Shown: one piece after another, positions 13,451 to 61,359 of the stretch
Layout of the letters: the number at the start of each line of letters is the position of its first letter
Position numbering within the stretch: position 1 is the first letter of the stretch
Source of the DNA: Antedon mediterranea
Lineage: Eukaryota > Animalia > Echinodermata
Assembly (NCBI RefSeq): GCF_964355755.1
Contig: NC_092671.1
Coordinates: 12,152,001 to 12,216,000, forward strand
Length of the DNA stretch: 64,000 nucleotides
Direction: 5' to 3'
Notes under the pieces: generated by a model
Told to the model about the DNA's origin: nothing
The model's database searches: none
Seen by the model: the letters and a program-made list of their open reading frames with translations, nothing else
Program-made: the position numbers and the translations under genes

Positions 13451-16112
13451 TGATAATAAATTATAATTGACAAGAACCTACATAAATACAGATATACAAT
13501 GTAAATTGATAATAAATGTGTATATATATATATTAAATATACGTAACACTTGCTTATTATAAATAACATGTTTATGTGTTTGGTACACTGTGTAAGAGTA
13601 TATAACACTACCCGTGTGACTGTCGATCTTACCCGAAAGAGCAGCTTTCGTTAAAAGTGTTTGTATGTGTACACAAACACCGATATACAGTATTGTGCAT
13701 CTTGTTCCCTGCAATCATTAAGAACCAGTAGGCCCTACAGATCACTAAAAAGTTACCCATGCATATATTAACGTAATGTCAATCAGTATTTAATCGTATT
13801 GTTTGAAATCATTCTTTAGTATAGGTCTACGTAGGCCTATCTAAAGAGGTCACGTGTGAAAACCCCTTTTCCAGATATCAACATTCAATTTGTGAAGTGG
13901 CTATATTGACCTGTACCTTTGAATGTTTTAGGTGAATACATAAACAAAAACTTACTTCGAATTCTCCATCACTTTCTGCTGTGTTGTCTGGTTTAGTGGA
14001 GGTAATGCGAAAACACGAATACAACGTATACTAAATAAAGCGGGCCGGATCACAGGATCAAGCCCTAATTTAGTTGACCTATTCAACAAAATTATAGTTA
14101 GGCCCCTACTAAGGCTACGAAAATATGTGAAGATTTAAATCATTCTTTATATAAATACTATGATAAATTGAGATCAAACATACTTAACTTGCTGAGATCG
14201 TGCAATAGTCGGTCAAAGAGATATTTTAATTCATGTGTAGGCCTACTGTAGTCCATCAGACTTTTAAATGACGTACAATTTTGTGACTTAACTTTTTTTT
14301 TATCTATATACCATTTTGATGTTTTTATATTTTAATGAAATGTGTTTTATATAAGTGTTTTAACAAACCGGGCGGTTTAGAATTAATGTTCATTGCCTGA
14401 TGTGTTTATATATATTATAATATATATATATATATATTCCTTTTTACTGAAGACTAAATAAAGTTTAAATTGAATTGAAACTGTAGTAGCCTGTGTTACA
14501 ATTTGTACAAAAAGCACTGGAAATTACATTTTAAGAAGAGGAATGGATGATTCAATATTTATTACTCTTAAAGAAAAACATTTTCCTTTAAAGCAGGAAA
14601 TTATTACGTGCTAATATGCACAATTAAAAGTAATAAAGACTGTGACGTCATCCGGTCCATTCCACCTGTAAAGTGTTTGCAGCAGCACTACGGAAACAAT
14701 CACACAACCTGTGTTTATAACTAGAATATGGATCGATACATGTATGAATAGAGCTTGTATAAGTTTATCACGCAAACCTGCAACGCGTTCACAGTGATGA
14801 TGACCATCATAGAAGAGCATACGACTAGAAACACCAATGACGCTAGGAAATCAACCACGTCTGTTATGTAGCCTTCCACGGATCACATCTACAATATTTT
14901 TACTATAGACAGGTAAGGGTAAACTTACATTATTATAAATAAGTCGAGCACTTAAACTAAGTATGTAAGAATTAAGTTAAGTAAAGAAGCGTAGTAGAGA
15001 TCACTTCAGTGTATTATCGATCTAATAGACAGCCTCTTTTGAAATAGGCTATAGATAATTGGAGTGCAAATCGCCGTTGTACGAGTAAGTAGGTCTTCAT
15101 TAGATATATACATGATCGATTAATGACTGTTAGCCTACACTTTTATAGAAACTACAATATATGAGTGGTATTGGATTTCTCATCAGCATGTCTATCCAAC
15201 ATTCAATTATGGTAACGTCTTACGACAGAAAAAATACGAGGTAACCAAAATTTCCCTCCGATTAAACTATACATATAGAGAGATACAGCACTGAGAATCT
15301 GGTGTGCTTGGTTCAATGGCCAAGTGTTGTGTATAAGAGTGATATGAAATAATATCTGGTTGTATATAAAACGACATTGAAACGTAAATATCACAGTACT
15401 TATTTTTCTTCAAGAGTTTCAATTACACCATGAGATCTTTTACAAGTGAAATAAACAATGTAAAACCCGGAATAATGTAACAAAGAAACCGAGAAATAGA
15501 AGAAACTACAGAAAACATGTTCAATAGAACCACTTTTTGTAAACATGTTTTGGTCCAGTGATTGATAATATATTTTTAATCTAATATATAGGCCTAGAAT
15601 AATTTTTACTCCATAATTTAATTTCTGGGCTGCTATTGTTATATTATTCTTATTCGTGTTTAAATAGCATTATGTCAACTGATGGCTTGAAGAAGGATGT
15701 GTTGGGAATCAACAATACTTGTTAAGTGTTTATTTACCAATGGTCTGTTGTTAAGACCGATTTCAATATGTCCGTGTTTAAACTAATGCCAGCCTCATTC
15801 ATTACATTATTCTTCTGAGACTTTAAACAATGAAATGTAAAATTGTGTTAAACGTGATCTCTCAAAAGCAAAACGAACTTACATTGAATAATTGAACACA
15901 ATCAACCGCACACACGTTTAAAATTGCTAAACGGTGAATACAAATTAGGCCTAAGGTTAAGAGATATACTGTGTAGAGATATAGAAAATAGTTTCTCTAC
16001 TTGAGCCAATTTACACAGACGAGCGGTAACGATAAGCGGAAACCCGCGTGCTTGTCCCACATAGAATATGTATCTATATCCGGAGCGGGTTTTAGCTCAA
16101 CCACCCATCGGA

Positions 16113-17357: not shown

Positions 17358-17656
17358 GGATTAGCTCCGCGTTTTGTGTAAATAGGCATAAGAAATAATT
17401 AACATAGATTCTATATTTTTGTTGTCCGCTAGCCGTTTACCGCTTACCGACCAACACCGACCTCTCTTTTACGAACTGGATCCTTTAATACAGGGGTTAC
17501 AGGGTTATTCTACTGTGCGTTAAACTTGAATTTGATTTTTATAATTATAAATTTTTTCTCTTTCTTTAGTGTTATTCTGCATTTGTTTTAACGATTTTAA
17601 AACTTATATTTTAGACCTGCAAGCTTGATTGAAAGATACGCTTGAGTAATCTTCAT

Positions 17657-18817
17657 ATGATGACTTGGCACACGTCCGATCGACAAAACAGACTACGAAG
17701 TAGAAGTCTACACTGGATATTAGACGAGCAAAGATCTATGGGCAGACAAGCAATGTACTTTAGTAATATGGTCAATAGAAAAGATCGTCTGCTAACTGCA
17801 GAACATTACAACACGAAGCGCGCCATTTCCAGATTCGATGGCAACTGGTCATCTCGACGACAGCGATCCAATACATCACCTGCGCGACTTCAATATAATA
17901 GTTCTCGCTACTCCCAACTATCACTGCCTGCTCCACCTATTATCTTACACGGGCAAGGAATATTTGAAAAAGGACAAGAAGAAACGAATGGACATACACT
18001 TGTTATTTCATCTAAAAGTGTTGATAAGCCTGTAAAAAAATTACCACTCCAATCTTTAGTTCAATACATGAGCAATGTTCGCCATTTCGATCAACAATTA
18101 ATAGTAGCAGCTGAAGCTAAAAAAACACTTCTACCACATATATATGTTGAAAAAAAGCGTCAGCTTACACCGGCAAGAAAGCCGACGAAAGATAAACAAC
18201 TCGAACAAATCAGTAGACACTATCAGAAAATTAGTTATCGAATCGAAGACGAACCAGAATATTTTGTGTTACCAAAATGCAGAGGGTTGACATCTAGGTC
18301 TAACCGTTTGCCGTCTCTCGAGTATCTGTACAATAAAGGAAGAGAGCCTAAATTTAATGCTCCAAAATCGACACCACAAATATCGCGGCAGAATTCTTAC
18401 GAGAATTTATCAGATATGGTATTAACTGTTGACGACGAATGTGCCTCGATACGAGGAAAATTATTTGATCACTCTTTGTCTCATTCATTAACAAAATTAA
18501 AATGCTCTGAATTATTAACACCACATGATGTAAATAATGATAATAAAGCTGTAAAGATTTTAAATCATTCAATTAATATACTGAACTCTGTTAAGAGTCT
18601 TCCAAAAGTTACTTCACAATTGCCAGAAATAGTAATAACCCCACCTGTACATAAAGACCTTGAATGTCAATTTGAAACTTGGCAACAATGGAAGCTTCAA
18701 AAGTTGGTATGCCAACGTGAACTTCGAAGACGGGAACTAGTTCGATTGATAGAAGATATTAAAGAATTTAATGATTTAAATAAAACATTAGCTCAACAGC
18801 TTTTCACCCAAATCTAG
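17657..18817 (+). CDS. Uncharacterised protein of about 386 aa, single coding exon, basic and Ser-rich with a predicted helical C-terminus
   Basis: 1.17-kb stop-free ORF in AT-rich DNA; pyrimidine tract plus AG acceptor at ~17614 just before the first ATG (17657); AATAAA at ~18892 and ~19007; no transposon motifs recognised. Confidence 0.75.
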   Translation: MMTWHTSDRQNRLRSRSLHWILDEQRSMGRQAMYFSNMVNRKDRLLTAEHYNTKRAISRFDGNWSSRRQRSNTSPARLQYNSSRYSQLSLPAPPIILHGQGIFEKGQEETNGHTLVISSKSVDKPVKKLPLQSLVQYMSNVRHFDQQLIVAAEAKKTLLPHIYVEKKRQLTPARKPTKDKQLEQISRHYQKISYRIEDEPEYFVLPKCRGLTSRSNRLPSLEYLYNKGREPKFNAPKSTPQISRQNSYENLSDMVLTVDDECASIRGKLFDHSLSHSLTKLKCSELLTPHDVNNDNKAVKILNHSINILNSVKSLPKVTSQLPEIVITPPVHKDLECQFETWQQWKLQKLVCQRELRRRELVRLIEDIKEFNDLNKTLAQQLFTQI

Positions 18818-20110: not shown

Positions 20111-21018
20111 CATAATTTTTGCGCAATTTTACTATAAAATGGTCTTAACAAGAAATATTCCTTACAAAAAACGCCGCTTGCTTGTTGACGTAACAATTTA
20201 CCATTTTATTATAATAGTTATTCACGTTAACCAAAAAGTATTTACCTGAAAAAAATACTTACATTGTCTGTCAGACAATGGTTTTTGGTTAAAATTAAAC
20301 AGTTCTTTTTTCTTTTTATAAGTGAAAAATTTCTTTTTGTTACGGAAGTGATTAACTTTTGTATTTTTAAGTACAACAAGAATTAATACTTTGATATGTC
20401 ATAATTGTGCAATTAAAATTGAAAAATAAAAAATACTGAATCTGTATAAAAGATGATGTGCTTATTAAATAATTTAAATGAAAACGATGTCTAAATAATT
20501 TAATAAAGACCACTAAACAGACTCAATTTCTGTCACTTTAGTTTATTTTATTGCTGACAGTATTATAAAATCAGCCTAGATTGACAGTCAAATGGGTCAA
20601 GTGACCCATTGCCTACTTCAAAACTATGTTTACCATTTCTTCAGTTGCAAAGATTTATCGACTAAAGTCAATTATTTTGTAGAGGTTTATAGTAGACCTT
20701 TATGCCAGCATCCATGAACATTCTATAAAAACATAAAGTATTGAAGACCAAACCTATTGGTATTACAATTTCCCGTTTTCTTACATTCTTAAATATTAGA
20801 CTGTTAGAAGGGATTATGTTAGGCACTCGTTTACAAAATTGACCAAGGTAGGTAATTGTAGACGTACTGGTAGCCTATAAAAATTAACCAATTGGAGCAA
20901 CGGCATTTAGCTATCATTGTTATAAAAATCGTACAAGCATAATAGGACAAGAACCGGTAATGAGTATTAAACCAAAATTCGTTTGAATATGTGGATTTAT
21001 TTACAGTGAGTGTACGGA

Positions 21019-24000
21019 ATGGCAAATAATATAGGCCTACATGAATATGGCCAAGATGAAGTGGACTGGCGTAACTGTATATCTGCCATCGAGACAAGTC
21101 GCGGAACAGTTTTATTTTGCACTCGCGAACTCTTATCTTTGCGGCAGGATCTTCAAGTTGTCGGTCACTTTGGTCAGAGTGGACAGTTGATGCGTGGCGT
21201 TGTAATGTATTCAATAACAGCATACAATCCTATGAATAAAATAATTGAAGTTGTCGAAAATGTTAGACGTAACAAATTTTTAATGGAGGATTTACACGCC
21301 AAACTTCCGGGTTGTGAGATTTTAAACAATTATTCATTTTTTCCAAACTGTCCGAAACATTTTGAGAGAGGATTCACGATCGTGTTTCCCCTGGATTATC
21401 CAGTTAGTGACCATGATGGAATTGTCTGTGGGTTGGCGGTCAAGTACCATCAAGCCGCCTACTTTCGCAGTGTGATACACAATAATGGGGATGTTGAACA
21501 GAAATTGATATTAATGATTGATAATAAACCAAAAGAAGTGGATGAAGAACTGATGGTCATTGAGAGAATCAACTACCACCCTGCGTTTATGCACCATACA
21601 AACCATTCCGTGTTTCATGATTATAGAATTGCTCTCGACGTCTTGTCCCGTGTAAGTCGGTTATACATTATTAGAATATACAATATAATAATTGACAGTT
21701 CGAGTAGACCCACGTCTTCTCTGCCATTATTTAATTGTATGATAACGTTTATTCGTAGACAGATATAACCAAAGGTCGTTGTCACAAGTAACATCAATGA
21801 TATATGTAATGAGATTATAAATACACTGTTAATGTAGGCCTAATTATATATACAGGGTTGAAAAAACCCTCTTTTGATTTCAATGTATTTAGAAAAATAG
21901 TCGGGATGGATTTGTTAGGGTTTTGTTTGTTGGCGTACACAATTACATGCCGTTTTAGGCCTAGAATACACTATTATTACACAAATTGTGACAATTACGT
22001 ATACTATTTGTATAGCCTCATTGACAACATTGTTGAATTACCAGATTCATAAAGGCACCAAATAACTAATAAAATGCAGTATACAAAGTGTTGGCCTATT
22101 TTTCAGACAACTAAGCCTAACAATATTGTTTAAATACTTTAACCATGACATACTTGATTTTAAGTACAAATTTAAAATGCAAGTAAAAAGTTAAATAGAC
22201 ATAGAAAATTACAATTATTACAGGTAATTTTGGATACAAAATGGATTTGAGTTTAGTGTCTTGTCTCGTTTTCAAGAGGGCCTCTCCAAATCTGAAGTAC
22301 AGCAACCATTGTACAATATTAGCAAATAAATAGCAATCCGTTATTCAAGGCGTGTATGAGATGAAATAATATTAGGATGAAATAGACAGGGTTTTGCTCC
22401 TGGCATTGTTCTAACTGCACTAAATCAAATATACGCCTTTACTGTATATAATCTATAAATTAAATATATTTAGACATTATTGTATAGGTCTAACAATCAA
22501 TACATTTGTAATGTTTCAGTGGCAATCAAATTGCACCGCAGTGGATGAGTTGATCTCAATCGTTTCATCTCTTGACGAAAATGAAGCGGTAGTTAACAAC
22601 AATCTCTATCCTATTATTGCGATAGAAGGCCCAAAATTAAAAGGTAGATGCGATTTCTTCATCTTTGACTACGTTCCTTATTATGGTTCAAAATATTGCA
22701 CACCGGGTATCAATGATCATACTTGATATTATGACTATTTCCAACATTCATTTCTTGCCACGAGTCTAAATAATATATTTAAAATATTTAGCAAACAATA
22801 TCAGTTTGTATATACTTGTACACCATCATGCGTTCAAATGGTTTCTAATATCACAACGTTTAAGTATAGCAGACTTCATAAGAATTATTATGGAAACAAC
22901 CTAATGTACTAATTTTTGTTCTGAAGCGTGGTTACCACTAGCGACGCAACGCAAGGACGTAACGCAACGCAAGTGAATTGACCAATCACAAGCGATGGCT
23001 TATTCGCTTGTGATTGCTAACTGTCTATAACTTCGCTTGTCATTGGTTAAAACGCTTGCGTTGCGTTTACGTCCTTGCGTTACGTTCTAGTGGGAACCAA
23101 GCTTTAATGCGTTACATCTATAGGAATATGCCTAGGTACAGTGTGCAGGCAGTTAAGTTCTTCATTAGGGACAGTGTATTTGAATTCGATTCCTGTTTGT
23201 CTACAACACCTTAAAAAATCGTTCGACGCCCAACCTCAGTTTATTCGTGGTGCAATCTATGCGGTCAGTAATTACATATTGGGGCTGGAGCTTTCTACAA
23301 ACGCAAAGAATTCACCTGTTTTTATAGATAGGTATGTCATTATTTAATTGTGATTTTATGAATTTGACAAATGGAGAATATTGGCTATATACCTATTCTG
23401 GGAGGCTGAGTTTACAGGGCCTAATATACTATATTAACCTACGTACTAATCAACAATTTCAGTTTCAAGTTTCAATTTATTTTTTTCCAAATTGCATATT
23501 TATAAGATAATTTGATATAACTGTTTAGGCAAAGCAAAAAATGGAGGGAAAAAACAAAAGAGCAAAGCTCGTTTTTTAGACAATGTAAAATTAACTAGTA
23601 GGTAACAACTTAATTTCTGCTACGTTGTTAAAATTAAAATGCTACGTTAGTGGTCGATTTCTTTTTATACGTTATTGGTTAACATGACATTAGTGTTTGA
23701 TTATCGATCGTTACATTATATTATTATTATTATTATTATTATTAGTGAGCGATATATGAATAAAGGAATAGTGACGGAACAGGAGAAAACGTCAAATATT
23801 GAAATATAAAATGATATTGTTGTACTTTACTCACTGTAAGAAATCATAGGATTGTTGTCTTACTGTGAACTTAGTTTACAAGGTTACTCTTTAAATTTCT
23901 TTTTGAACAATAACAAAACGATGATACGCTAGCTGGCAATCCTAATCTATTATAATGCTTTCTAAATTATACTTAAACTCTACAACAATGAATAGGATTG

Positions 24001-26380
24001 AAATGACTAATAAACTGAATCCCTTTACCTTTTTTATCCTTTTATTTCGCATCATATGACCTAAATATAACAATGGAATATTCACCCGGAGCGGTTAATT
24101 GTTTATTTTTATTCCATCAATATAAAATAAAAGGGGTGTCTAGAAAACTCAGATCTAGAAAACTCAGATCTCAGATATATCTAACTTTTCTAGATCTAGA
24201 AAACTCAGATATCTGACTTTTCTAGATCTAGAAAACTCAGATATCAATATCTGAGTTTTCTAGTTCCAAAATAGAACTAGAAAACCCAGATCATCAAATG
24301 GATCGTTCCATTATTATTAGAGGGTAGCATATTTGAAATACTACACAGTAGTATACGTTTTCTTACTAATAACAATAATTATTGTAACTTGTAGTAGCAG
24401 CCTACGACTTAAATCATAAAAAAAATGCAGTATACACATTTTAAAATGTAGGCTTAGCATTTAGGCCGAGCTAAGCAAACTCAATTCAAGGCTCAACGTG
24501 TGGGCGCTATCGCGATGTATCGCGAAGAGTAGCCCTGGTCCTAGTGGTGGTCAACTCGTACCCAAAATAACTCGTACCTATTCCCAACTTGGCTAACTCG
24601 TAGTTCAACCAACTCGTACCCACACCAACTGGTACATACCTTATTCTTAAAGCCTATTATTTTAACGGTAACATGCACTGTATTTTCTTTATGATTTAAG
24701 CTGTGGGCCGCTTCTACATGTTACAATATTGGTAAGAAAACGTACACAGTAATCAGTTTTAATAATACTCTAGTATTTCAAATGACCTACCTGCTGGTTA
24801 ATAATGGGCGATCCAAATGACTTACCAACCGATCAAATGATGATCTGAGTTTTCTAGTTCCATTCTGGAACTAGAAAAGTCAGATATTGATATCTAAGTT
24901 TTCTAGATCTAGAAAACTCAGATATATCTGAGATCTGAGTTTTCTAGATCTGAGTTTTCTAGACACCCACATAAAAGCTATTTGCGTTTTGTCATGTTAT
25001 GATCATGCCTATTTTGTTTGTGTTTATAAACTCGGTTTAGGTACTGGAACAGCACTGTTGCACATTGTATTGTTAATGAAGTTGGAGATGGAATTGGAAA
25101 CTTACCACCTAAGAACCACATAGTGTATGACTGGCCAACTCATCTACCGGAACCTACTTCGGTTGTCCTTGTGAGCTGCAAGAAGAAACTAAGACAAATG
25201 AAGGAGAGAAGAGGAAAAACTACGTATGAAAACATGTAAGTTAGAAAAAAATTGGATTTATATAAATATATATACTCCACCCTGTCTCCTTTCTTTTATT
25301 CCTGTTCACCCAGGCAGCACTTGCCAGCTTTTATACCATGACGTTATACAAATTCCTTCACTTGCACTGATGAAGGGCTAGTGTTGCCTGAAAGCTCTGC
25401 TAACTTTTCTGGCTGTTTTACTTTATCGTTTTGATTTAGCTTTTCGCATTTTTTAGTATCTCCATTGAGATCCAGCCACTGATACCCACAGCATTGTCAT
25501 TTTTTCAGTTATTTGCCTTTGGATTTATATATATATATATATATGTATATGTACAGTGCGTAAACTGAGGACTAGTGCTGTTCCGCCGTACCACGGCTAT
25601 CCAATCGAGTTCGAACAATACCATGAAAGCCCCAGTGGTCTAATGGTTAGAACATCTGCATATCAAGCAGGCGGTCCGAGTTCGAGTCTCGGTTGGGGCG
25701 ACTTTTTCTCATTCTCACAGATTTCCTCATCTTTATCGTTTCAAATTAATTAATTAAATTTCAGTATATCACCGGGCGGTTTAGAATTAATGTTCTTTGC
25801 CTGATTTGTTTATAGTTCGAGTCTCGGTTGGGGCGACTTTTTCTCATTCTCACAGATTTCCTCATCTTTATCGTTTCAAATTAATTAATTAAATTTCAGT
25901 ATATCACCGGGCGGTTTAGAATTAATGTTCTTTGCCTGATTTGTTTTTATATTTATATATATATATATTTCGATGGGCTTTACACAGAACTGTTTAATGA
26001 GCTGCCTTATTAAATAAACGACGGTGAATGTGTTTCGAAACATTGTCTATCCTTAATCGAATCAGAAGATACAGATAGTACATTGCCCGGTCAGATTTGG
26101 CCACATAAAAACATTAATTTTAGCATATGGATTGAATACAGTGATGCAGTATGGATAATTCAGCATGTTAATTTTTTTTATTGTTTTTTTTTTATTCAGG
26201 GTTTTCGAAACTTTTCAGCGAATGCGAAACCAATCTTGGATTGAAATAGACATTGCGCAACAACAATGTACGGATACTTCCCTCGTAGTCTCACACATTA
26301 TCGATAAACTCCGAAAAAAAAACTTGTTCTGTAATAAATTGCCAACGTCATTCTGCCCTAGCACTGGGCTTCATCAATAA
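21019..26380 (+). CDS. CMPK2: CMPK2-like (UMP-CMP kinase 2 / thymidylate kinase family) protein, copy 1, about 446 aa, degenerate P-loop
   Basis: Exons 21019-21651, 22520-22643, 23124-23331, 25041-25235, 26200-26380, all GT-AG with compatible phases. Motifs IIAIEG, SPVFIDRYWNST, NLPPKNHIVYDWP and FQRMRN match vertebrate CMPK2 (VVAIEG, SPVIVDRYWHST, HLPPAHHPVYQWP, YQRMEN). Confidence 0.85.
22925..23103. mobile_element. MITE (Harbinger-like) in intron 2 of CMPK2-like copy 1
   Basis: TIRs AGCGTGGTTACCACTAG / CTAGTGGGAACCAAGCT with internal GCAACGCAAGGACGTAA inverted repeats; absent from the equivalent intron of copy 2. Confidence 0.8.
24134..24968. mobile_element. Foldback / Mutator-like non-autonomous transposon
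   Basis: Long TIRs built from CTAGAAAACTCAGAT sub-repeats starting GGGTGTCTAG; 9-bp TSD AAATAAAAG / ACATAAAAG (1 mismatch); internal AACTCGTACC repeats at 24552-24625. Confidence 0.8.
25275..25520 (+). mobile_element. Penelope-like terminal-repeat fragment
   Basis: Contains a hammerhead core; flanked on both sides by TTGGATTTATATA; a related inverted fragment lies at ~54653-54715. Confidence 0.55.
25364..25400 (+). ncRNA. Minimal type I hammerhead ribozyme motif
   Basis: GCA-CTGATGA-A-GGGC-TAGTGTT-GCCT-GAAA-GCT-C-TGC: conserved core, 4-bp stem II, palindromic AGCT stem III, stem I GCA/TGC. Confidence 0.7.
25629..25950 (+). mobile_element. tRNA-derived SINE with a tandemly duplicated 3' part
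   Basis: 25629-25700 folds as a cloverleaf with A and B boxes. The same body and tail recur at 25815-25950, 49146-49315 and 14367-14410. Confidence 0.8.
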
Positions 26381-27461
26381 ATCAAAGATACCCTTGCTTT
26401 TTAGACTTTTCCGGAAAAAACACATAATAATAGACGATGGAATGGCACATTTTCAGATCGATCCTGTGCCGAACTGTCCCGTCTTTGATTCTAAGATCTG
26501 GTGAACCAGATAGTACAAATACATGAGTGCGTACTATTTCATTGATTTTAAATAAAAAGCACATTTCCCCCATGGACTGACAATGAGGAACAAATGCGTA
26601 TTAGACAATGTACTCCTTGTTTTGCCGCCTGTGGTAAACATTAGAGTGAAACACAGATAGGCATCCACAAAACAATAATTAAAAAATAACACCTGTGAAT
26701 GATATATGAGTTTATACTGTACTGATATTGTACAATTGTGCATTGTACATAATTTTTAATTCGTATTAAATTTTAAATTTAATTTTTTATATATTGATTA
26801 TAAAATCAATTAATAATAATGAATAATTTATTGTATATTACATACCGTAAATAAAATAGACAAAATAACAAATAATTTACAAAGACCAAACCGTAATTAT
26901 TTTATCTTTCATTGTTTCAATAAAAATCTGTTTTGTTTTGAACTTGAATTAAAGAATATGCAAATATTAATCAATCAATTAAAAATCATTATTAAGCAGC
27001 TGTTTAATATTTTGAAAAACAGTAGGCTATGCGTAAAACAGCAGAGGGCTCTATCACGCGACAAGTGCACGAATTACATCATCATTTTCTTTTTTTCAAT
27101 ATGACGCAACAGTTTGATGGATTCCAATGAGAACCGGGATATTTATAACAATGCCAATTACTTGCAATAAAAAGAAAGGATGTTAATATAGATAACCATG
27201 ATATTACCAATTACCAATAAATCATATTCATCATCATGTATTTTTGAAACTGTGAAGTACTGTATTAATTATGTGGTTAAATGTCTATAATAACATGGAG
27301 CCACTGTTTACAAAATCGACTAGGCTAGTAATTGTTGTCATATAAAAATTTAACCAATTGGAGAGCAGCCTTTCTAGTACGCTTCATTTAACAATATCAT
27401 TGTTGTATATTAATCGTCTATCGAAAAGCACCGGTGTATTAAAAGGTGTACATACGTTAAG

Positions 27462-30035
27462 ATGGCTAATAATATGAATGAATATGGTCAAGATGAAGTG
27501 GACTGGCTTAACTGTATATCTGCCATCGAGACAAGTCGCGGAACAGTTTTCTTCTGCGATCGCGACCTCTTGCCTTTGCGGCAGGATCTTCAAGTTGTCG
27601 GTCAATTTGGTAAGACTAAGAGTGGACAGTTGATGCGTGGCGTTGTAATGTATTCAATAACAGCATACAATCCTATGAATAAAAGAATTGAAGTTGTCGA
27701 AAATGTTAGACGTAACGAATTTTTAATGGAGGAGTTACACGCCAAACTTCCAGGTTGTGAGATTCTAAACAATTATTCATTTTTTCCAAACTGTCCGAAA
27801 CATTTTGAGAGAGGATTCACGATCGTTTTACCCTTGGATTATCCAGTTAGTAACCATGATGGAATTGTCTGTGAGTTGGCGGTCAAGTACCATCAAGCCG
27901 CCTACTTTCGCAGTGTGATACACAATAATGGGGATGTTGAACAGAAATTGATATTAATGATTGATAATAAACCAAAAGAAGTGGATGAAGAACTGATGGT
28001 CATTGAGAGAATTAACTACCACCCTGCGTTTATGCACCATACAAACCATTCCGTGTTTCATGATTATAGGATTGCTCTCGACGTCTTGTCCCGTGTAAGT
28101 GGATTATAAAATATAATACAGTTTATAAACGTACTCTTGATCTGCTATTATATTACTGTTAAGGTTGATATAGGCTAATTGTATTTTTTGAATATATTAT
28201 ATATAAATACATAACAATTAGTTTGTTTATTATATATTTCAGTGGCGATCTTGTGCCGCAGTGGATGAGTTGCTCTCCATCATGTCATCTCGTGCCAAGC
28301 ACGAATTAGCGATTGTTCGCAACAACAAAGATCTCCACCCTATTATTGCAATAGAAGGCCCCAAATTAAGAGGTACTTTACGCGATTCTTTTATAGTTTA
28401 GCATTATGGTTCATACGATATTTATAATCATGTAACATTAACATTATATAGGCAAATATGGTGAAAAAAAGTTTGTACTTTTTTCATTTTTTTGTTCTCT
28501 TCTTGTACGTTTTACCTGTTGTATTTACAGTACAGTTTACATAAAATGTCCTTTTCTTGTGTAAGATCCATGCTATTTAAATAAATGTAAAATTGAATGT
28601 GCATCATGTAACAACTTTTCGATTTGCGAAAACCTAGGATACGAGCATACTGATTCGTTTGTCGTTACATAGACCTAGAATCCATTGGTCTAGGTTCTAG
28701 ACTGTGTATTAGTAAAAGATCAATACTCTGGCCCATATGATGTTTCATACGTAGCCTATAGTACGTACATTGAAACGCCGACTGGTTGGCGAAAATAAAA
28801 AAGACATTTAATACAGACTTGAGGAAAGAATCTACCAAAACTGTGTCAAGAAATTAAGCTCATTGTCAGAACAATCATCATGCGAGTTTAACAAATGTAA
28901 AAACAATTATTATAACAATGTCAATTTTATTTCTTCAAACATGCATTACATAGGAATAGGTGCAGTGTGCAGGCGGTTGAGTTCTTCATTAGGGACAGTG
29001 TATTTGAATTCGATTCCTGTTTGTGTACAACACCTTAAGAAATCGTTCGACGCCCAACCTCAGTTGATTCGTGGTGCATTCCATGCTGTCAGTAATTACA
29101 TATTGGGGCTGGAGCTTTCTACAAAAGCAAAGAATTCACCTGTTTTTGTAGATAGGTATGTCACCAATATATTAACTTGAAATTATGTGAATTATAATAA
29201 AACATTAGCATGAGAACACAACAGCTTTGTGTTCATATACTAAATAAAGGTTGATTCGTTTATCATTTGCATCGATTTTGGCATTTGTAGTGGCCTATTT
29301 TGTTTATGTAAAAATTATAATATATTATTTTTTATATATTAATATATTATTATTATATAAAATTGGTTTAGGTACTGGAACAGCACTGTTGCACATTGTA
29401 TTGTTAATGAAGTTGGAGATGGAATTGGAAACTTACCACCTAAGAACCACATGGTGTATGACTGGCCAACTCATCTACCGGAACCTACTTCGGTTGTTCT
29501 TGTGAGCTGCAAGAAGAAACTAAGACAAATGAAGAATAGTGGTCCCAAGAGAGGAAAAACTACGTATGAAAATATGTAAGTTAAATAAAGTTTAAAACGG
29601 TATTTCATATTCAGTGACTTGAGATACGATACAAAATCAGTGATCCAATACAAAATAAACTGTCTTACCTTTTCTTTATTCAGTGGAGAATTGATTTATA
29701 TATCGGGTTTTTTCTTTGTTTTACTTTGATCTAGGGTTTTTGAAACTTTTCGGCGAATGAGAAACGAGTCTTGGATTGAAATCGACTTTGCTAAACAACA
29801 ATGTACGAATACTACCGACGTAGTCTCACACATTATCGATAAACTCCAAGAAAAAAACTTGTTCTCTATTAAATTGCCAACATCACTCTGCCCTAGCACT
29901 GTGCTTCATCCAGAAATACCCCATGATACCATTGCTTTTGAGACATCCTTACCAGCAAAACATCTACAAGTAACATACGATGGAATGCAACATTTTGCAT
30001 TTCTAAGCTGCTCGTGCCCAAGTATCCCGTCATAA
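27462..30035 (+). CDS. CMPK2: CMPK2-like protein, copy 2, about 489 aa, degenerate P-loop
   Basis: Exons 27462-28094, 28243-28372, 28954-29155, 29372-29575, 29735-30035. Same intron positions and phases as copy 1, uninterrupted frame, motifs SPVFVDRYWNST and LPPKNHMVYDWP. Confidence 0.85.
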
Positions 30036-36600: not shown

Positions 36601-39600
36601 AATAATGCAAAGTTTGCGGTACATCAAGTATGTATAGTTCTGAAAAGTTTTTAATCGTTTTTTCAGTACTATTGACGTTGATTTGATTTGATTTATTCAA
36701 TATCGGCTCATTACAATAGAATACATAAAAATACAAAATGAAACAAAAAGCCAGGATTGTCAAAAGCGAACCCAATCACTGACGTTGCTTACCGCTAACG
36801 TTTATTATATTGATTTTCGCCATGCAAACCTTCCAACAATATAATAGTTAATTGAATTTGGTACATTCTTATGATAATACAGCATTAATAGAGAATAAGA
36901 CCAGTATGAAAATGTGTCTTCTGTTATCACAAGATTAGATTACGTACACAATTACAATAAAAAAAACAATAAGATTCGTCATCGAAATAGTAAATATTTA
37001 CATTATTACTTGCTTTGTTTGTTTGTATTGTCAAGTTATTGTCTCCTGATTTTAACTAGCTATATACCAACATGTCTATTGATTTTCAGGATATATTTGG
37101 TGACTCATTTTGCCAAATAGTTCGCTTAGTATACATGAGAGCTTAATATCTATGTTTAGTGTTTAACCAAAGACGATAAATACCATTCTTCCGGAACTCA
37201 AAAACTCACCTAGCATTAAATTTCTTCAAAGAGAAGATTCTCAAAAGATATTCTCCTACTTCGTTTGGCTTGAAAGTTGAAGGTATAATGCAATATTCTC
37301 CTTTTGGCAGTTTGAATCGATCACAGATCTCTCTTGAATTTATGAACTGATATGAACGAGCAGTTGTTTGGTGATACAGAAAGAAGTCTTTTGGCAACTT
37401 TTCAAACTGTTTGAACTCGTCGTCTATCTGAAAATTCAATAAGCAAAATTGCCATAACATTACTCTACCCTTTATGTTACTGTTTGTCCCGTGTATTTTT
37501 AAAGTTTGAAAAATATTAATCATATTGAAGATTTAAAAGGAGCTAATCATTATCGATCTATAATTTCCTCCCTGTTTCATAATTTTTATTGTGCCACACG
37601 ATTTTGTTGAAAGTAAGCATTTTCATATCAGTAGGAGAATAGTTCAAATTACACAGTCTTTTGTACACAACTTTTGAAAATAAAAAGGCATTTTTAAATA
37701 ATTAAGAAAAATAAACAGTTTGGTATAAATATCTTTTTTTACATTCAATTTAGAAAGACTTAATTCTTGATTTGTATAAAAAAATATTATTTATGAAACA
37801 TACAATTGTTGCCGATTCTCCTTCTTAATCAGATCATAGGCAAATACGATATGATACAGCATGTATCCCTTATCGTAGACCCTCAACCTAACGCTTAACG
37901 CTATACAGACATACGTGATAAACATACAATTATGTATTTAAAGATCTTCCATATAATATGATACAGGGCAGGCAATCTGATTCCCGCATACTATCATATG
38001 AATAATTGGTAATACAGCAGCTCATTCATATCACATGTAGTGCCTTTACCAAATATCTGAGATATTGTCATGTGTTAAGAATCGTAATTTTCACCTCGTA
38101 GATGGAAAATCCAATGGTCAGGTTCTTGTCTCCCTTGCTCTTAAGTCTGCGAAAATTTTTCTGCATCAAACAAACAACTAATGTACATTCTTCTTCATCG
38201 TCATCATCTTCCTCCAATTTCACTCGAAATTGAGGGTTTGTGTGAAAAGTGTCTAAATGTCGAAAATTGTATCATTATTAATCACCTGTTCGTAATTCAA
38301 AGTTACGTGTATCGTCCCAGGGGAGAACAACCATGAGTTGATCTGGGCCTCTGTGGTTAAAGATTTATTGTCCCGCAAATAATTTATAAAATCAAACTCT
38401 GAATAGGCAATTTTGCAGTATTAATGAAGTTATTCACTTCCATAAGAAAAAAAAACAAAAACAAAATATGATTTTACTGCTAAATTTAACCAAAAATTCA
38501 TTGTCTGACAGACAATTTTACTATTTTTTCCTTTAAATTATAGTTTTGTCAGGTAATAAATTATTTTTTTTTGACACAATTTTTGGTCAAAGTAAATAAC
38601 TATTGTGTGACATTAAAATAGCACATCACACAAACAAAATTTAAAAAAAAAAATTTTCAGAGGAAAAATATTATTATTATTAATTATATACGTGCTATGC
38701 TTATTGGTCTTGTTTCTAAGGTTTACAACCTGGGAAATTCCTGCATCCTCCAGCGGTAGAACCCTTCACCCAGCTGTGTTGGATAAGACTCATTTCATAA
38801 GACCTCGTGCTTGGTTCTGTGATTTCCGGTGAAAGGCTACACATTTCGAGTTTGGAGAATTTTTTGGTGAAATCGTCAAACGACATCCTAAATACACAAA
38901 ATTATCATTACGTTATTTAGTATTTAATCTCAAACAGCAAGACAACAAAATATTCTTAACCTTTAATAATCGTGAAAATTAAGCTATTCATTACATGACT
39001 TATGAAACGCTAAAATCCCTGTTCAAAGATCCAACCCCAGCATTTACCAGAATTCCCCATCATCTGAAAAATCCAGACCAAGTTGTTTCTTTTCCTCCGT
39101 AGTTACCAACGACCACTCGGCGGATCTGCAGTCAGAGAGATAAGTTTAAAGTAAAATCGGTTATAAAAGCAAGTAATGTATTTTTTTGGGTTTTTATATT
39201 TTATAAAGATAAATATTTTCTGGTTCTTTTATTCACAAATTCACAAATAAAAACACATAGATTAATCAAATTGGCCATAGTAATAAGATTAGAATACAAA
39301 AAGTACAAAGAAGGCCTATTTAAAAATATAGTTTGTTATAATTAATGTGTTATGCTGTTCGACAGTCGACTAGTAGCCCAAGTACTGGAATAATTTATTT
39401 GAATAAATTCCGAATTAAGTACATTCGTACACTCTGATTAGTGCGTGGTAATATTACTTACTTATCGCTCCAGGCACCTGTCCATTCACTTTCATTTCCA
39501 TAGGGATTGCGGATCCTGACAAGACTGACGTCTAACTGACCAGAGCCTGTTTTAGCATTGATCTGAAAAAAGATAATCAAGTTTAAAAAGTTCTGTTCTG

Positions 39601-42578
39601 TTTTAATATTCTAATGGGAATTTCCTTATGTGGGCATACTCTGTGCACTTCCGTTTGTCAATCGTAGAGGTCAATGTGACTATCGGGATCGCACTAAAAT
39701 CCCAAGCAGTACACAGTTTAGGAGATATAAAATTATGAATACCCTTACCTTACTTACACCTGTAATTGCATAGGCGTGTCCCTTGATGAGCCCATTATCC
39801 AATTTAGACTCTATTTCATTAGGTTTAGCATCAATGCTACATCCCATCAGAGAGCATCTAGCAAATCCTTCCTGCATTATCTTAAACAAATCCTTGGGAG
39901 CCTTCGAAAGTTTAAAAGTTTCTACAATACCTCCAGTAAAGTCAGTCATTGCTTCCGAGGTTTGACCTCCTTTTAATGATTCATATGAGCCACATAGTCT
40001 ATATTAGAGGTTTACAGTAAATTAATTACAAATGTGTTGTTAAGTATATTTCATATTGTGTGAGGAATCAAATCTAAATAAATTTGAAAATATATTTTGT
40101 TTAACGTGATTGTGTGAGTATGCATGAATGTAAATTTCCTTTTAAAAATATATATTATGTACAATATATCCATCTCATCGTGGAGGGGGAATAGGTAGAA
40201 GGAGAAGTATAAGGGAATAGAGGAGTACTGTAGAGCTTTGTTGCATACCGTATTGAGTGTTGCCACTGAATCGAAGAGAATTCATGTCTACTACCCCTTT
40301 CACACCAAAAGCAAAACTCCGGAGACACTCCGGAGACACCCCGGAGTTGACGTCCCGCTGTTTGGTGTGAAAGGTAAAATCAAGCAACTCCGGAGTTTAA
40401 AACTGCGGGGTTGAACAGCTGAACATTCTCCGGAGAGCGAACTGCGGGGACACCCCGGTGTTTTGGTGTGAAAGGTACCAACATCAAACTCCGGAGTGTT
40501 TCGGGTCAAAAGGTCATCCTCACACGATCACTCATTGCTTTAGTTTTATTTCAAAATACTTTAAATATTTGTACAACATATATAGCAGGTTCAAAAATAA
40601 TAAGTAGTATCAATAAAACATTATATTACTTCTGAGACTTTTGAAAGTAATTATTAAATTAAACATATTATTAATTAAAATGATTCTAATGATCGTCGCT
40701 ATGTAAACAAACAAAATAGAGGGCGACATTTACAATTTTATTTTATAAACCCCGGAGTTGCTAGGTTGGTGTGAAAGGGGTATCTCCGGAGTTTCTCGAC
40801 GTTTTGAATGGTCATAAACCCCGGGGTGTCTCCGGAGACACTCCGGAGTTTTGGTGTGAAAGGGGTATTAGTTTAGAAACTTGCTTTTCGTATATTCCTT
40901 GTAATCATTCTAATCACTTCCATTACAATTACTTCCATTACAAATCATTTATTTGATTTTAACTTTTTTGTAAAAAATTATCAATTCATATATACATACT
41001 TTGCATAAGCCTTCTCCATAAGAGCGCTCCAAAATTCATTGTTATTTTCTGAATGGAGAAATACTAGTTTTCCATTGTAAGTTGGTAGACGGTCATCTAC
41101 AACTACATCGATCCACTCGCCAAATTGCCAGAAACGAAAGTGGAAAATCCCGGCATAGTCTACTTTAAAATTTTGATCAACTAGACAGACCTTCTGAAAA
41201 AGAGATTGATTGGTACACAGGGACGAAACAGCCGACAACAACCAGCAATCACCTGAAACAAATACAATAAATAATTATAAAACAAACCGAAGGGGCTTTT
41301 ATTTGTAAATAAATACAATTTTAAAGAATGGAGAAATGATCATTTAAAATAAGGGTAGCTGAAACTTGCCCTTGGCTGTATTAGGGAGTATTGCGATTAC
41401 AGATTTTATTCTCGCTCTTCCCATGGTGGCAATTATTTCTTTATTGTTTTTAGTGTTAGAAATGAATTCGGACTTAGGATTAGTCATCACCAGAAATAAC
41501 AACAAAACAGAAAAAAACCAAATTACTTATTAGCTTTATGTAGGTTTTTCGTATTATTTATTTATTTCAAGTTTGCTTTAGTCTACAATATTCTAATACA
41601 ATTTTACTTAACCAAGCATTCCCTGGACAATGTCAAATCGACTTGCTCCTTCGGCAATAAATTCAGGATTTGGAACAATTTCCTGAAAGTAATGTTTAAA
41701 ATGTTAGTTATAATGTACAATCGACAGTAGAACCCTATTAAGGGTATTATACTGTTATACTCAGTTTGTTTCACGGAAAAGTTTCCACTTAACACGGTCC
41801 TCTGAAAATGGGTTAGGCCTACTGGTTTCAATTTAAGCCAATAATTATGTTCTGTGGGGTGATTGTGATGGTGCAATTCAGCCTGTTGGTGAAACTCATA
41901 TTGTATACAGCATTCAATAATTAGACTTAAACTTGGAAAATTATTGGGTTTTTTATTCAAATTTTTGCCAATAAATAAAAAACAAACAGGCCATGAGGTC
42001 AGTTGAATAATTCGACCGACCCTAGTCCTCTCTCTATTAATTGTTTCATTATTTTTTTGGTATACTATTACAAACACTCTGCCATGGTCGACAAGGGCAA
42101 CTCATTTGTTGGATTTTTAAAGCTGCATATATTAGATATAATAGGATTATAATGCTTTGGATAAAACCTAGCGGATTTCCGTGTAATTATAAAAAAACAG
42201 CAATCCTGAAAATGAATATGCATTTAAGAAGCCTGTGTACTCAAATCTCTAACAAAAGCTCAAGCCTATCTTTTTTCAACTTCCTTTCCTACAATAAACT
42301 GGGACTTTTTTTAAAGTACAGTAGATCTATAACTGGTCATGGTTGGTGATTTCAGATTAAAAGTTATGTAATAGTTATCTTATAAACCTAAATGTTTAGG
42401 CACAATAACAAATATGTATACTTACACTCGGTCGCTTCCATTGAAATGGTTTTGGTTGGCTTTTACTATAAAATAAACTTTCTTCGACTGCTGGGAATTC
42501 TTTGTCTTCAAATAAGGTCCCGGTTTTCAGACATTCCCTTTTTAGTTCTTTGTAATCTTGGTCTTTGATCATGATCAT
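30644..42578 (-). CDS. Classical calpain (CysPc + C2-like + penta-EF-hand), about 670 aa
   Basis: 18 phase-compatible exons: 42578-42426, 41682-41613, 41252-41000, 39998-39749, 39562-39462, 39125-39048, 38887-38730, 38252-38095, 37427-37210, 36578-36536, 36345-36262, 35875-35821, 35147-35089, 34549-34487, 34027-33949, 31350-31240, 30973-30918, 30667-30644. Catalytic motifs QGMLGDCW, GHAY and RNPYG; also TAGGCRN, NPQF and YCIIPSTF. Confidence 0.93.
31436..33534. mobile_element. 2.1-kb non-autonomous DNA transposon in calpain intron 15
   Basis: TIRs CAGTGGGA(A/C)AGCCA(C/G)T with shared subterminal AAATCGTGT.AAAT..CGACT; 4-bp TSD TCTA on both sides. Confidence 0.7.
34270..34395. repeat. 24-bp minisatellite, about 5 copies
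   Basis: CCTGCGTGG(A/C)ACTTTA(T/C)GTCCCT(G/C) repeats. Confidence 0.85.
34550..35088 (-). other. U12-type (minor spliceosome) GT-AG intron of calpain
   Basis: Donor GTATCCTTT; branch-like TCTTTGAC 13 nt before the exon; only a very short pyrimidine tract. Confidence 0.8.
36055..36275. repeat. Degenerate ~38-40 bp tandem repeat overlapping a calpain splice donor
   Basis: ATAACTC(A/G)CATCTTTTCCAG-like units repeated 5-6 times. Confidence 0.6.
40294..40865. mobile_element. MITE in calpain intron 3
   Basis: TIRs CCCCTTTCACACCAAAA / TTTTGGTGTGAAAGGGG flanked by TA; internal CTCCGGAG palindromic repeats. Confidence 0.85.
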
Positions 42579-44078
42579 CTTCCTTCTTTATGAAACTTCT
42601 AAAATACAAAAGAACACGTTGATTTTCCATTCCTAATTTTATTTATTTATGCCTGATATATTATGCAGATTGTGGGAGAAATGGGTGCACGCCAGATTTG
42701 CAGGAATCAAGAAAGTCGTAAGTAAAATGGCGAATCATTTATTTGCAAGAAATGTATTAAGAAAGGCAAAATAAATTAAATTGAAGGCCAGCAAATGGAG
42801 GATATTGCGAGAGTGGATAGTTTTTGTTTTCTTGGTGGTTGTGAAGTTACAGTTGCAAGAAGAAACAGATTTGGATGGACAAAGTTCAATGTGCTGGCCG
42901 TGGTAGGTTGTGTGGCAGAAGATTCACATTGGAAATGAAAGGAATATCTACAAAGCCTGTGTAAGGTAAACGATTGTATATGGCATCAAAACATGGAACA
43001 TGAAGGCAAGCCAAGAAGGAATTTTGAGAAGAACAGGGCAAAAATAAAAAATGTGTGGAAGAAGGAGAAATTTGACTCAAATAAAAGGTGATAATGAAAA
43101 TATTGAATGCTGTGACTAAAACCAATACAAAAAGTGGGTATGGATCACTATAATTTCTCCAACGTGCAAAATACACTCTGATCTCCATGCTATAGAAATA
43201 AGTGAATTTTAGCATTTTTTCAACATCTTGACATAATATTAAGCATTAAGCAGATGAATAATAATAAATATTAGAATTTATTAAATAACTATTATGAATA
43301 GTAAATACTTACTAGCGTCTCTAAAGTAGTATTCTAAGATTACACAACTTGCCTTTATACCAAAATCAAACCCAGGTGATCAAACAGCGTAGTCACAGAG
43401 TGTGTTTATACCGTCAATGTATAACTGCTTGACTTGAAAAAATGTGTTCTTTTAAATGGGATCTGTTATTTCAACCATGTCACTGTAAGATTAAATGTAA
43501 TCTAAATCAAGGTTTGTATTGTTGTCTCTTTTTCAGTTCGATTACCATGAGTGGTACACAATGACTTTGTTTGCATTGTTGGACCACGATTATATATCAA
43601 CTTGGTTTATTATTCCATAATCCCTTCCTTCATTTCGACAGTAATACAAAACCTTACTTGCACGTACGTACTGTATTGGTGGAGACGGAAATTGTAATCT
43701 CGAACCATTTGAAGTATAGAAATAATCCCAAACCATTCAAAGTATAGAAATGTAATAGAACGGCGGTGGTTTCTGTCTGGAAATGTCGCCTCGGTCCGAC
43801 AGGATTTGTGAAAGTAGCGTGAGAAGATACCGGTATACTGTATTCGTCAGGATTATCGAATGTTACTTATTGTCCCGAGAACGTTTCTGCCATAATTATA
43901 AAGACCAGGTCTGATTCAAAATTAAAACTGATCATAATGTAGGCTAGTTCATACTAACGAATCTATTATGTTTTAGTACGGTCTCATAAACTTACCTTAA
44001 CACTTGCCTTCACTGAGGTTTTAACATCATGTATTGCCTGATGCTGTGTTAGGTCTACGGAAGTACTACTGTCAATAG

Positions 44079-49145: not shown

Positions 49146-49315
49146 ACCCCCAGTGGTCTAATGGTTAGGACATCTGCATATCAAGCAGACGGTTCTAGGG
49201 CGACTTTTTCACACATTCACAGATTTCCTTATCTTTATCGTTTCAAATTAATTAATTAAATTTCAGTATATCACCTGGCGGTTTAGAATTAATGTTCTGT
49301 GCCTGATGTGTTATA
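49146..49315 (+). mobile_element. tRNA-derived SINE with internal deletion (family of 25629)
   Basis: CCCCAGTGGTCTAATGGTTAGGACATCTGCATATCAAGCAG head and the same tail; B box deleted. Confidence 0.8.
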
Positions 49316-50024
49316 TAAGAGATCCCGATTCGTTAATAAAATACTGAAAGATGAGGGCGTATCAATTTGATCTCTTAATGTCCACTTATGATATACACTA
49401 ATTATTCTATTTTCTCAGCTCTGCGTGGGCATACCAGCGTCTATGGCAGCTTTCATGACGCGACAAGAGTACGGTGAGAAGAAAATGGATAGCAATGACG
49501 TCACGTCTATCACGCCTCTTATATATTCGGTGATCAGACAGCAAGGCAATGTTAGAATAAAGTAACTTACGAATAGTCCTGCAGTGTATCGTCTTTCTTT
49601 ATTTCAACTCATCAATTTCCATTATATCTTTGTAACTATAAAGGGTCGGTTCAGACTTATCCGGAAAAGTTAACCGGATGTCCAAAAAATATAAAATCCT
49701 ATTAACATATTTATCATTAAATTACGCATTTGATCTTTCGGCTTAGACTCCTAAACTGTAGAGCATTTTAGGGGGTATACAAAACTCATATAGAAGGACC
49801 TGATCAGGCTACGACGACTTTTATGATAATATCTAAATGATTTCTGTCATTCATTTGTCTTTGGGTCGTTTTTCATCATTTATGGTTTCTTATCTTCATC
49901 AACATCATCATCAACATCGATCAAGATTGACCGTTAGGCTATTCTGGAGTAATCTTAATATAATTTATATATGGTCTTACGCAGTCTAGTTTCAGACGGC
50001 GATTGTGTAATACTGTAAAACCTC

Positions 50025-50905
50025 GATAAGAAGTCTTTTTGGTTGACAAAAGTAATCTCGAGAAGAAGCTTATATCGAAAAGAAGTTCATATCGAAAAGA
50101 AGTCAACTCTCTTTGGTTGACAAACGTAATCTTAAAAAAAGCCCATGTCGAAAAGAACCCAACTCTCTTTGGTTGGCAAAATATATCTCGAAATGAAGCC
50201 AACCTTGAAAAGAAGTCAACTCTCTATGGTTGTAAAAAATAATCTCGAAATGAAGCCCATATCGAAAAAAAGTCAACTGTCTTTGGTTGACAAAGTAATC
50301 TCGAAAAGAAGCCAATATCGAAAAGAAGCTAACCCTCTTTGCTTGCCAACCAGAAGTAATCTCGAAAAGAAGACCATATCGAAAAGAAGCTAACCCTTTT
50401 TGCTTGGCAACCAAAAGTAATCTCGAAAAGATAAAAGAAGCCCCTATCAAAAAGAAGCCAACTCTCTTCGGTTGACAAAGTAATCTCGTAAAGAAGCCCG
50501 TATGGAAAAGAAGCCAACTCTCTTTGGTTGGCCAAAGTAATTTCTAAAAGAATTTCATATCGAAAAGAAGCCAACTCTCTTTGGTTGACGAAGTAATCTC
50601 TAAAGAAGCCCATCTTGAGAAGAAAGCCATCTCTAAAGCAAGTCCACTGGGTTTCTTTTCGTAAAACCCATTATATTTTTCTCTCATATCAGGAATATTT
50701 TGGAAGCCGATCTGAAAAAAGAAGCCAACCCTCTTTGGTGGGCAAAAGCAATCTCTAAAAGAATTCCATATCGAAAAGAAGCCAACTCCTCTTGGTTGAC
50801 AAAAGTAATCTCTAAAGAAGCCCATCTCTAAAAGAAAGCCATCTCTGAAGCAAGTCCACTGGGTTTCATTTCGTAAAACCCATTATATTTTTCTCTCATA
50901 TCAGG
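50025..50905. repeat. Satellite-like array (~58-60 bp units) with a higher-order duplication
   Basis: TCGAAAAGAAGCCAACTCTCTTTGGTTGACAAAGTAATC repeated more than 10 times; block ~50510-50695 repeated at ~50720-50905. Confidence 0.9.
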
Positions 50906-61357: not shown

Positions 61358-61359
61358 TC

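Follow-up and report, generated by a model that had tools for sequence, protein, structure and literature searches.

A crinoid CMPK2-like N-terminal domain related to DUF3293, with the predicted fold of phage SAM lyases

A 64,000 bp stretch of the genome of the crinoid Antedon mediterranea (NC_092671.1, positions 12,152,001 to 12,216,000 of the forward strand; referred to below as the window, in whose coordinates all positions are given) contains two tandem CMPK2-like genes, A and B, in AT-rich DNA and interrupted by introns. Exon 1 of gene A (21019..21651, + strand, as are all features of the two genes) encodes the 211-residue N-terminal domain of an echinoderm CMPK2, a relative of the prokaryotic family DUF3293 (PF11697) with the predicted fold of the phage S-adenosylmethionine (SAM) lyases. 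Shared ancestry of this domain with DUF3293 and with the vertebrate CMPK2 N-terminal domain can be regarded as nearly certain, and a SAM-lyase fold (ferredoxin/PII-like and closest to that of T3) as highly probable from structure prediction. Its residues Glu116 and Gln145 may bind and cleave SAM or a related adenosyl-sulfonium compound, beside a kinase domain that is likely inactive; we hold this tentatively, with slightly more doubt than conviction, the doubt lying in substrate and catalysis.

The human CMPK2 N-terminal domain suffices to restrict translation of Zika virus and is described, in the available part of that report, as of unknown function and with low homology elsewhere (PMC10150978). 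Vertebrate CMPK2 is an interferon-induced partner of viperin, which binds its residues 1-257 (PMC13525419, available in part), and a preprint, also available in part, describes the N-terminal domain as common in deuterostomes and calls it a recent innovation (bioRxiv 2023.09.13.557418). In a search of mostly open literature, outside ECOD and TED, no paper was found on DUF3293 or linking CMPK2 to a SAM lyase or SAMase, so the link may be recorded elsewhere; among the matches listed, by their titles and the starts of their abstracts, no paper examined the CMPK2 N-terminal domain by Foldseek or described this CMPK2 pseudokinase. With a fold, a prokaryotic family and pocket residues that can be named, the function of the mammalian antiviral domain becomes directly testable and DUF3293 gains its first functional hypothesis; the echinoderm versions and the unnamed DUF3293-kinase fusions are those most likely still active. 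In the most extended version of the proposal, which is doubtful as a whole, phage anti-defence chemistry would have been turned into an animal defence tool.

Relationship of the N-terminal domain to DUF3293 and vertebrate CMPK2

A sequence-only reading of this DNA had proposed that exon 1 follows the DUF3293 pattern, and the motifs on which it relied are present at the coordinates checked: ITAYNP (21214..21231; TAxNP in DUF3293, with SAFR at this place in the T3 SAM lyase), ENVRRN (21256..21273), FERGF (21361..21375) and LAVKYHQAAYF (21433..21465). It had also counted the segment VFHDYRIALDVL (21610..21645) as part of the N-terminal match, and this did not hold, since the segment lies outside the DUF3293 domain and also matches short CMPK2-like kinases that have no N-terminal domain; it was excluded from the domain tests. 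DUF3293 is the sole Pfam family found for exon 1 of gene A at E≤1 (E 0.0024, 18.9 bits), and the corresponding exon of gene B scores 22.2 bits with the whole model covered. Both copies fall under the family cut-off of 25 bits, and the domain is filed here as a divergent DUF3293 relative rather than a curated member. Four of the first five homologues give the same sub-threshold match, and DUF3293 matches are seen in 11 of 27 further homologues, three of which are above the cut-off (P0047, P0078 and P0175, a cluster mate of P0078; 36.7-43.9 bits) and continue into an intact CMPK2-type kinase; none of the nine vertebrate proteins among the 27 gives a DUF3293 match in Pfam. P0047 and P0078, along with P0151 (below the cut-off), are metagenomic fusions of DUF3293 to a kinase with an intact P-loop and form deep branches; they are possibly non-animal and may represent an ancestral two-enzyme fusion.

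A bacterial DUF3293 set was collected by DNA pattern, with 120 loci reduced to 106 in which an open frame contains the motif and to 83 that were kept; a downstream Glu and Gln were required, for which 23 were dropped, and the invariance of these two residues in the set is by construction. A profile of the 83 cores gives exon 1 32.1 bits; none of 1000 shuffles exceeds 3.8 bits and none of 185 reversed proteins exceeds 4.4. Because this set was chosen with a motif taken from the crinoid-type family, the Pfam and fold searches serve as the independent tests. The TAxNP, N-x3-N-x2-L, Glu and Gln motifs of DUF3293 are in register in the crinoid domain, and DUF3293 is also its best viral structural match (see below). 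It differs in having Ser where 66 of the 83 bacterial rows have Gly, and, whereas DUF3293 proteins are small bacterial and phage products, it has an extra N-terminal hairpin, is fused to a kinase-like domain and is encoded by a spliced animal gene.

Word-index searches returned echinoderm-type proteins only (2, 7 and 2 matches), tblastn of exon 1 against phages gave just two weak Vibrio phage matches (E 0.3), and tblastn of the P0078 N-terminal domain against phages and plasmids gave none. A family-alignment search of viral contigs yielded 0 of 101 candidates, and PHROGs contained no family matching the domain. In a tree of 97 columns the 17 eukaryote-type cores group in a clade of their own (SH-like approximate likelihood ratio test, SH-aLRT, 96), and this tree names no donor.

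Vertebrate CMPK2 is represented here by degu (XP_004644662), frog (XP_075720013), lizard, turtle, bichir, pipefish and lamprey, human CMPK2 not being among the profile matches. The profile search of 1.84 billion proteins gave 150 rows, and those named CMPK2 are from frog, lizard, turtle, lamprey, amphioxus, sea urchin, degu, bichir, pipefish, Ciona and Xenia. With an iterative profile of the N-terminal domain only, frog joins at 26 bits in round one (reversed decoys ≤10.7 bits), and the N-terminal domains of lizard, turtle, degu, bichir, pipefish and lamprey join in later rounds. At a threshold of 20 bits 28 of 61 N-terminal fragments were recovered; the 33 unrecovered fragments include the soft coral Xenia (16.5 bits) and many long unnamed N-termini. 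Profile-profile comparisons with hhalign, restricted to residues 17-176 with the kinase-linked helix removed, give 98.2% (E 4e-14) for the echinoderm-type domain versus bacterial DUF3293 and 83.5% (E 8e-6, 138 columns) for the vertebrate versus the echinoderm-type domain, or 97.2% versus a wider non-vertebrate set, whereas the direct comparison of vertebrate and bacterial domains is not significant (4.6%); reversed controls are at or below 1.4%. As the crinoid type links to both sides and these do not link directly, it is a true intermediate. Both the DUF3293 likeness and the bridging position between the vertebrate domain and a prokaryotic family, which the sequence-only reading had put forward, are thus borne out.

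The crinoid and vertebrate proteins (the comparison also including amphioxus and Ciona) are alike in their two-domain layout, in kinases that belong to the same clade, in N-terminal domains homologous over ~140 residues and in their best structural match. They differ in the replacement of the Walker A Lys-Thr in the crinoid (EGPKLKGIC, EGPKLRGIG), in its retention of TAxNP, Asn81, Asn85, Glu116 and Gln145, which vertebrates have mostly lost, in an N-terminus that is acidic by eye and has no Arg-rich leader, in an extra C-terminal tail, and in the presence of two tandem copies. Identity in the N-terminal core is 48-76% among echinoderms and 13-26% from echinoderm to vertebrate, and in the kinase part 38-54% to echinoderms and vertebrates alike (72% to the other crinoid), a pattern of conservation that is, at the sequence level, opposite to that of vertebrates. 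Eight open reading frames (ORFs) consisting of the N-terminal domain only (P0010, P0012, P0059, P0066, P0091, P0103, P0117 and P0130) align as far as the point where crinoid exon 1 ends and often end at a Val codon (GT); they are likely to represent exon 1 with translation continued into the intron, and this would point to an intron position that is old and shared.

Predicted fold and pocket residues

The model of the crinoid domain, built from a 36-row alignment (predicted local distance difference test, pLDDT, 90), has a DUF3293/SAM-lyase-like core at residues ~60-175 and an extra N-terminal beta hairpin at residues 21-35. When compared with 48,161 chains its best match is the T3 SAM lyase 7OCK_L (Z 11.0, root-mean-square deviation, rmsd, 3.7, 128/152 aligned), the sole chain with Z of at least 8, followed by a designed protein and the Svi3-3 lyase 6ZM9 (7.9). 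Foldseek places 6ZM9 at rank 1 in the PDB (prob 0.96, E 0.011) and, in the search of viral models, the phage DUF3293 protein A0A6J7WWE9 at rank 1 (E 9e-7); proteins named as SAM hydrolases follow there at ranks 9 and 33. In the best ESM Atlas clusters PF23780 SAM lyase is found in 27-79% of members, which is taken as a lead only; the degu N-terminal domain gives no usable match there. As a guard against circularity, a model of the degu domain was built from an alignment of 16 vertebrate rows alone (pLDDT 80); 7OCK_L is again the sole chain with Z of at least 8 (8.7, rmsd 3.9, 128 aligned; Svi3-3, 5.8), with the same A0A6J7WWE9 as top viral match (E 3.6e-3). The structural similarity to DUF3293 that had been expected is seen with both models; what the sequence-only reading did not contain are the SAM-lyase fold, a second copy of the gene and the broken P-loop of the kinase.

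It is very improbable that the likeness to SAM lyases reflects convergence on a common ferredoxin fold or that the link to DUF3293 arose by chance. Such explanations draw on the sub-threshold Pfam score of exon 1 and a Foldseek E of only 0.011, but three relatives pass the DUF3293 cut-off, the motifs are collinear, and two separately built models choose the same chain among 48,161; the chance explanation of the DUF3293 link is already largely refuted.

Three residues are invariant in Svi3-3, Gly56, Glu69 and Gln104, and Gly56 packs on the ribose (PMC7877911, available in part). Profile alignments chained from T3 to phage and bacterial DUF3293 and on to the crinoid, of which the T3-to-phage step is weak (5%), align Glu116 (21364..21366) to the catalytic Glu (T3 E68, Svi3-3 E69) and Gln145 (21451..21453) to the invariant Gln (T3 Q94, Svi3-3 Q104), and a profile alignment puts Ser106 (21334..21336) at the place of the invariant Gly (Svi3-3 G56, T3 G55). 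All nine echinoderm-type rows carry Glu116 and Gln145, as do most rows that are cnidarian-like or unnamed. Of the vertebrate rows, frog, lizard, turtle and one further amphibian-like row retain the Glu, degu has Gln instead, and the fishes and lamprey have lost it; Gln145 is kept in two of the nine vertebrate rows, and degu has lost both residues. The ancestral functional residues that the domain had been suggested to retain can now be named, on the strength of these alignments, as the SAM-lyase Glu and Gln. With two of the three invariant residues present and one absent, the domain is described as built like a SAM lyase and is not filed as one: it shares with T3 gp0.3 (7OCK), Svi3-3 (6ZM9) and PF23780 the predicted fold and the Glu and Gln, and differs in the Ser for Gly, in S-F-F for G-x-Y, in Q-A for Q-E/D, and in having no direct profile match.

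The phage members of DUF3293 stand closer to the lyases, keeping G-x-Y/F, E-x-S and Q-E/D as SAM lyases do. Six of eight phage DUF3293 stretches also match PF23780 below its cut-off (17-28 bits), and in a separate scan three of six phage DUF3293 proteins matched both PF11697 and, sub-threshold, PF23780; six of 19 viral pattern matches are DUF3293 proteins and the others are chance. Bacterial DUF3293 gives 46% (E 2e-4; reversed, 0.1%) in hhalign against the T3 family. One phage DUF3293 clade (L020-L032) has the full residue set and PF23780 matches, and its members are the best candidates for unrecognised SAM lyases.

In bacteria, 317 neighbours from 50 DUF3293 loci were clustered, and 66 of the 80 nearest neighbours and seven long ORFs were scanned. 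The sequence-only reading had looked to these neighbourhoods for genes of defence or nucleotide metabolism, and no such gene recurs in the scanned loci. The commonest neighbours (RraA and a response regulator) stem from seven related Vibrionaceae loci; L063 adjoins the bacteriophage exclusion (BREX) gene BrxL, the only defence neighbour and at one locus, and L114 adjoins SAM synthetase. Within the seven long ORFs DUF3293 is fused behind an SfsA nuclease (two), a 4'-phosphopantetheinyl transferase (two) and HPPK (one), at loci L062, L084, L066, L095 and L097.

These varied metabolic contexts bear on whether a domain of the same ancestry and fold might act on another substrate, such as a nucleotide-linked or damaged sulfonium metabolite, in a housekeeping and not an immune role, which we consider quite unlikely. 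The available part of one report notes that SAM lyase and SAM-AMP lyase structurally share only the Glu and Gln (PMC12255297). The SAM-AMP lyase of CorA-type III CRISPR (9GAB) and AcrIIIB4 are of the same superfamily as the crinoid domain and have the same pair of residues, although the structural match is weaker (Z 5.6) and within the range of unrelated folds. To our knowledge there is no SAM-AMP signalling in animals. That SAM-AMP lyase keeps only these two residues and does not cleave SAM speaks for another substrate, as do the bacterial fusions to SfsA, phosphopantetheinyl transferase and HPPK and the difference between TAxNP and the SAFR of T3; the phage DUF3293 proteins, with G-x-Y/F, E, S and Q-E/D kept as in SAM lyases and their matches to PF23780, argue against it.

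Several observations weigh against cleavage of SAM by the crinoid domain. The residue mapping passes through DUF3293 and is derived from alignments rather than structural superposition. The invariant Gly56 is replaced by Ser106 in all nine echinoderm-type rows, and Glu105 and Ser71 of Svi3-3 correspond to Ala146 and Gly118; according to the available part of PMC7877911, a Gly-to-Asp substitution at Gly56 kills Svi3-3, and the lyase active sites lie between the subunits of a trimer. The extra N-terminal hairpin and a C-terminal partner of 250 residues may alter assembly; a trimer prediction scored 0.00 in two runs in which the alignment went unused, and is evidence neither way. The crinoid domain has no direct match to PF23780 at E≤1 in Pfam (T3 control, 143 bits), hhalign of the crinoid family against the T3 family is not significant (0.2-0.4%, and likewise for any CMPK2 set), PDB sequence searches with family or phage DUF3293 profiles reached no SAM lyase, and Foldseek gives no PDB match at E 0.001 for the crinoid model. 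In sequence the domain is 6-14% identical to the lyases, and the ferredoxin-like fold is a common one, many unrelated chains reaching Z 5-7. Viperin uses SAM, so that lowering SAM would oppose viperin, and no viperin (radical-SAM) gene was found in the window among 119 of the 140 longer ORFs and by a motif scan, in which short exons can be missed.

The altered equivalents of Gly56, Glu105 and Ser71 would suit a non-catalytic PII-like sensor of the same ancestry and fold, which binds SAM, methylthioadenosine (MTA) or an adenine nucleotide and signals via the pseudokinase, and which we rate as somewhat unlikely. SAM lyases fall within the PII/GlnB-like superfamily, whose members bind ligands, and the E69Q mutant of Svi3-3 nearly abolishes activity and retains SAM and MTA binding (PMC7877911, available in part), degu having Gln at this position. 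The retention of both Glu and Gln in nine of nine echinoderm-type rows speaks against the sensor in that it suits chemistry, though it suits tight binding as well.

The kinase-like domain and a possible history

Both window genes have EGPKL(K/R)GI in place of the EGLDATGK(T/S) of CMPK2. The Walker A GK(S/T) is present in 50 of 56 kinase domains, and the six without it are all of the echinoderm domains examined, including those of both window genes. A kinase that lacks the Walker A lysine can usually no longer transfer phosphate, and the attached kinase domain is likely to be an inactive pseudokinase. In a tree of the 56 domains, which omitted rows whose P-loop the pattern missed, the six echinoderm sequences (from two crinoids, a brittle star and a sea urchin) form a long-branched clade (support 100/99) among deuterostome-like CMPK2s (87/82, not starred), and the thymidylate-kinase-like C-terminal domain of the window falls within the CMPK2 clade. 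The window kinases retain the DR motif (human D330 region).

We infer a history in which a single fusion joined a DUF3293 domain of prokaryotic type to a CMPK2 kinase, after which the echinoderm clade would have kept the active-site residues of the domain as the kinase decayed, and vertebrates would have kept the kinase, the pocket of the domain wearing away while its fold persisted as a binding surface or ligand sensor. The weakest steps of the proposal are that cleavage might release MTA and homoserine lactone at a subunit interface, and that it might reduce the SAM available to methyltransferases or determine how much SAM viperin receives in an immune response; an immune role for the window genes would follow by analogy with vertebrate CMPK2.

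That the domain, in mammals and echinoderms alike, is no more than a surface to which viperin or translation factors bind, the kept residues being structural, appears improbable. Such a role agrees with the binding of viperin to CMPK2 1-257 in mouse macrophages (PMC13525419, in part), with the restriction of flavivirus translation by the human domain, which needs cysteines (PMC10150978, in part), and with the absence of the TAxNP, Asn and Gln positions in vertebrates; set against these, what echinoderms share with bacteria are polar pocket residues and not surface patches, and only one of the six degu N-terminal cysteines aligns to a crinoid Cys. Returning to cleavage by Glu116 and Gln145, its most extended version holds that the antiviral N-terminal domain of CMPK2 came from a prokaryotic or phage SAM-lyase family, that the echinoderm branch is an immune enzyme that actively degrades SAM, is attached to a dead kinase and is wired to viperin, that the mammalian domain is a Glu-to-Gln SAM-binding remnant, and that DUF3293 comprises unrecognised SAM-type lyases; taken as a whole this is doubtful.

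Gene structures and other features of the window

Gene A spans 21019-26380 and gene B 27462-30035, with matching exon phases and canonical AG/GT sites. The frame of gene A exon 1 has 211 open codons from an ATG to a GT donor, and its product equals residues 1-211 of a database protein annotated as UMP-CMP kinase 2-like from Antedon mediterranea (P0002). Exon 2 (22520..22643) terminates within the degenerate P-loop (EGPKLKG), and exon 3 (23124..23331) encodes the kinase-like domain with the remainder of the P-loop, in which Ile replaces Lys, and the DR motif. Exon 4 lies at 25041..25235, at whose donor the database model P0002 ends, and this model is thus without the inferred exon 5 (26200..26380), which is in frame after an AG and 81% like exon 5 of gene B. 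Gene B has a second copy of the N-terminal domain in exon 1 (27462..28094; 91% protein identity and the same key residues), the P-loop EGPKLRG in exon 2 (28243..28372), exons 3 and 4 at 28954..29155 and 29372..29575, and a fifth exon that runs to the stop (29735..30035); its product is 489 aa long (P0003). The ratio of nonsynonymous to synonymous differences (pN/pS) between the two exon 1 copies is 0.39, a weak estimate with only 27 differences.

A contig of 1522 nt, whose source run is probably RNA, joins exon 1 of gene B to kinase exons 3, 4 and 5 with the introns absent, and 128 of its bases that are unlisted fit exon 2 (130 nt). The contig was compared with 20700-29250 only, hence the assignment of its last two exons to gene A. 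Run X1 has zero coverage of gene A exon 1, which says nothing on expression.

Upstream of gene A, the non-coding stretch 19848-20106 copies part of intron 1 (22216-22488) with 87% identity, and may be a repeat or what is left of another duplication. A high-copy tRNA-like element is tandemly doubled within intron 4 of gene A (25630-25950) and recurs at 49148-49317 and 14367-14431, and inverted-repeat elements, similar to miniature inverted-repeat transposable elements (MITEs), are present at 22924-23104 and 24134-24968. Just upstream of gene A is a 394-codon open frame (17633-18817, +) that matches no Pfam family and is likely a large last exon. The CMPK2 pair is convergent with a calpain gene (37209-42587, -), whose exons match Peptidase_C2 and Calpain_III. 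Pieces of a broken reverse transcriptase of the long interspersed nuclear element (LINE) type and of an ORF1-like frame are found at 60600-63974 (-), and a long imperfect tandem repeat with minus-strand open frames occupies 50100-50900.

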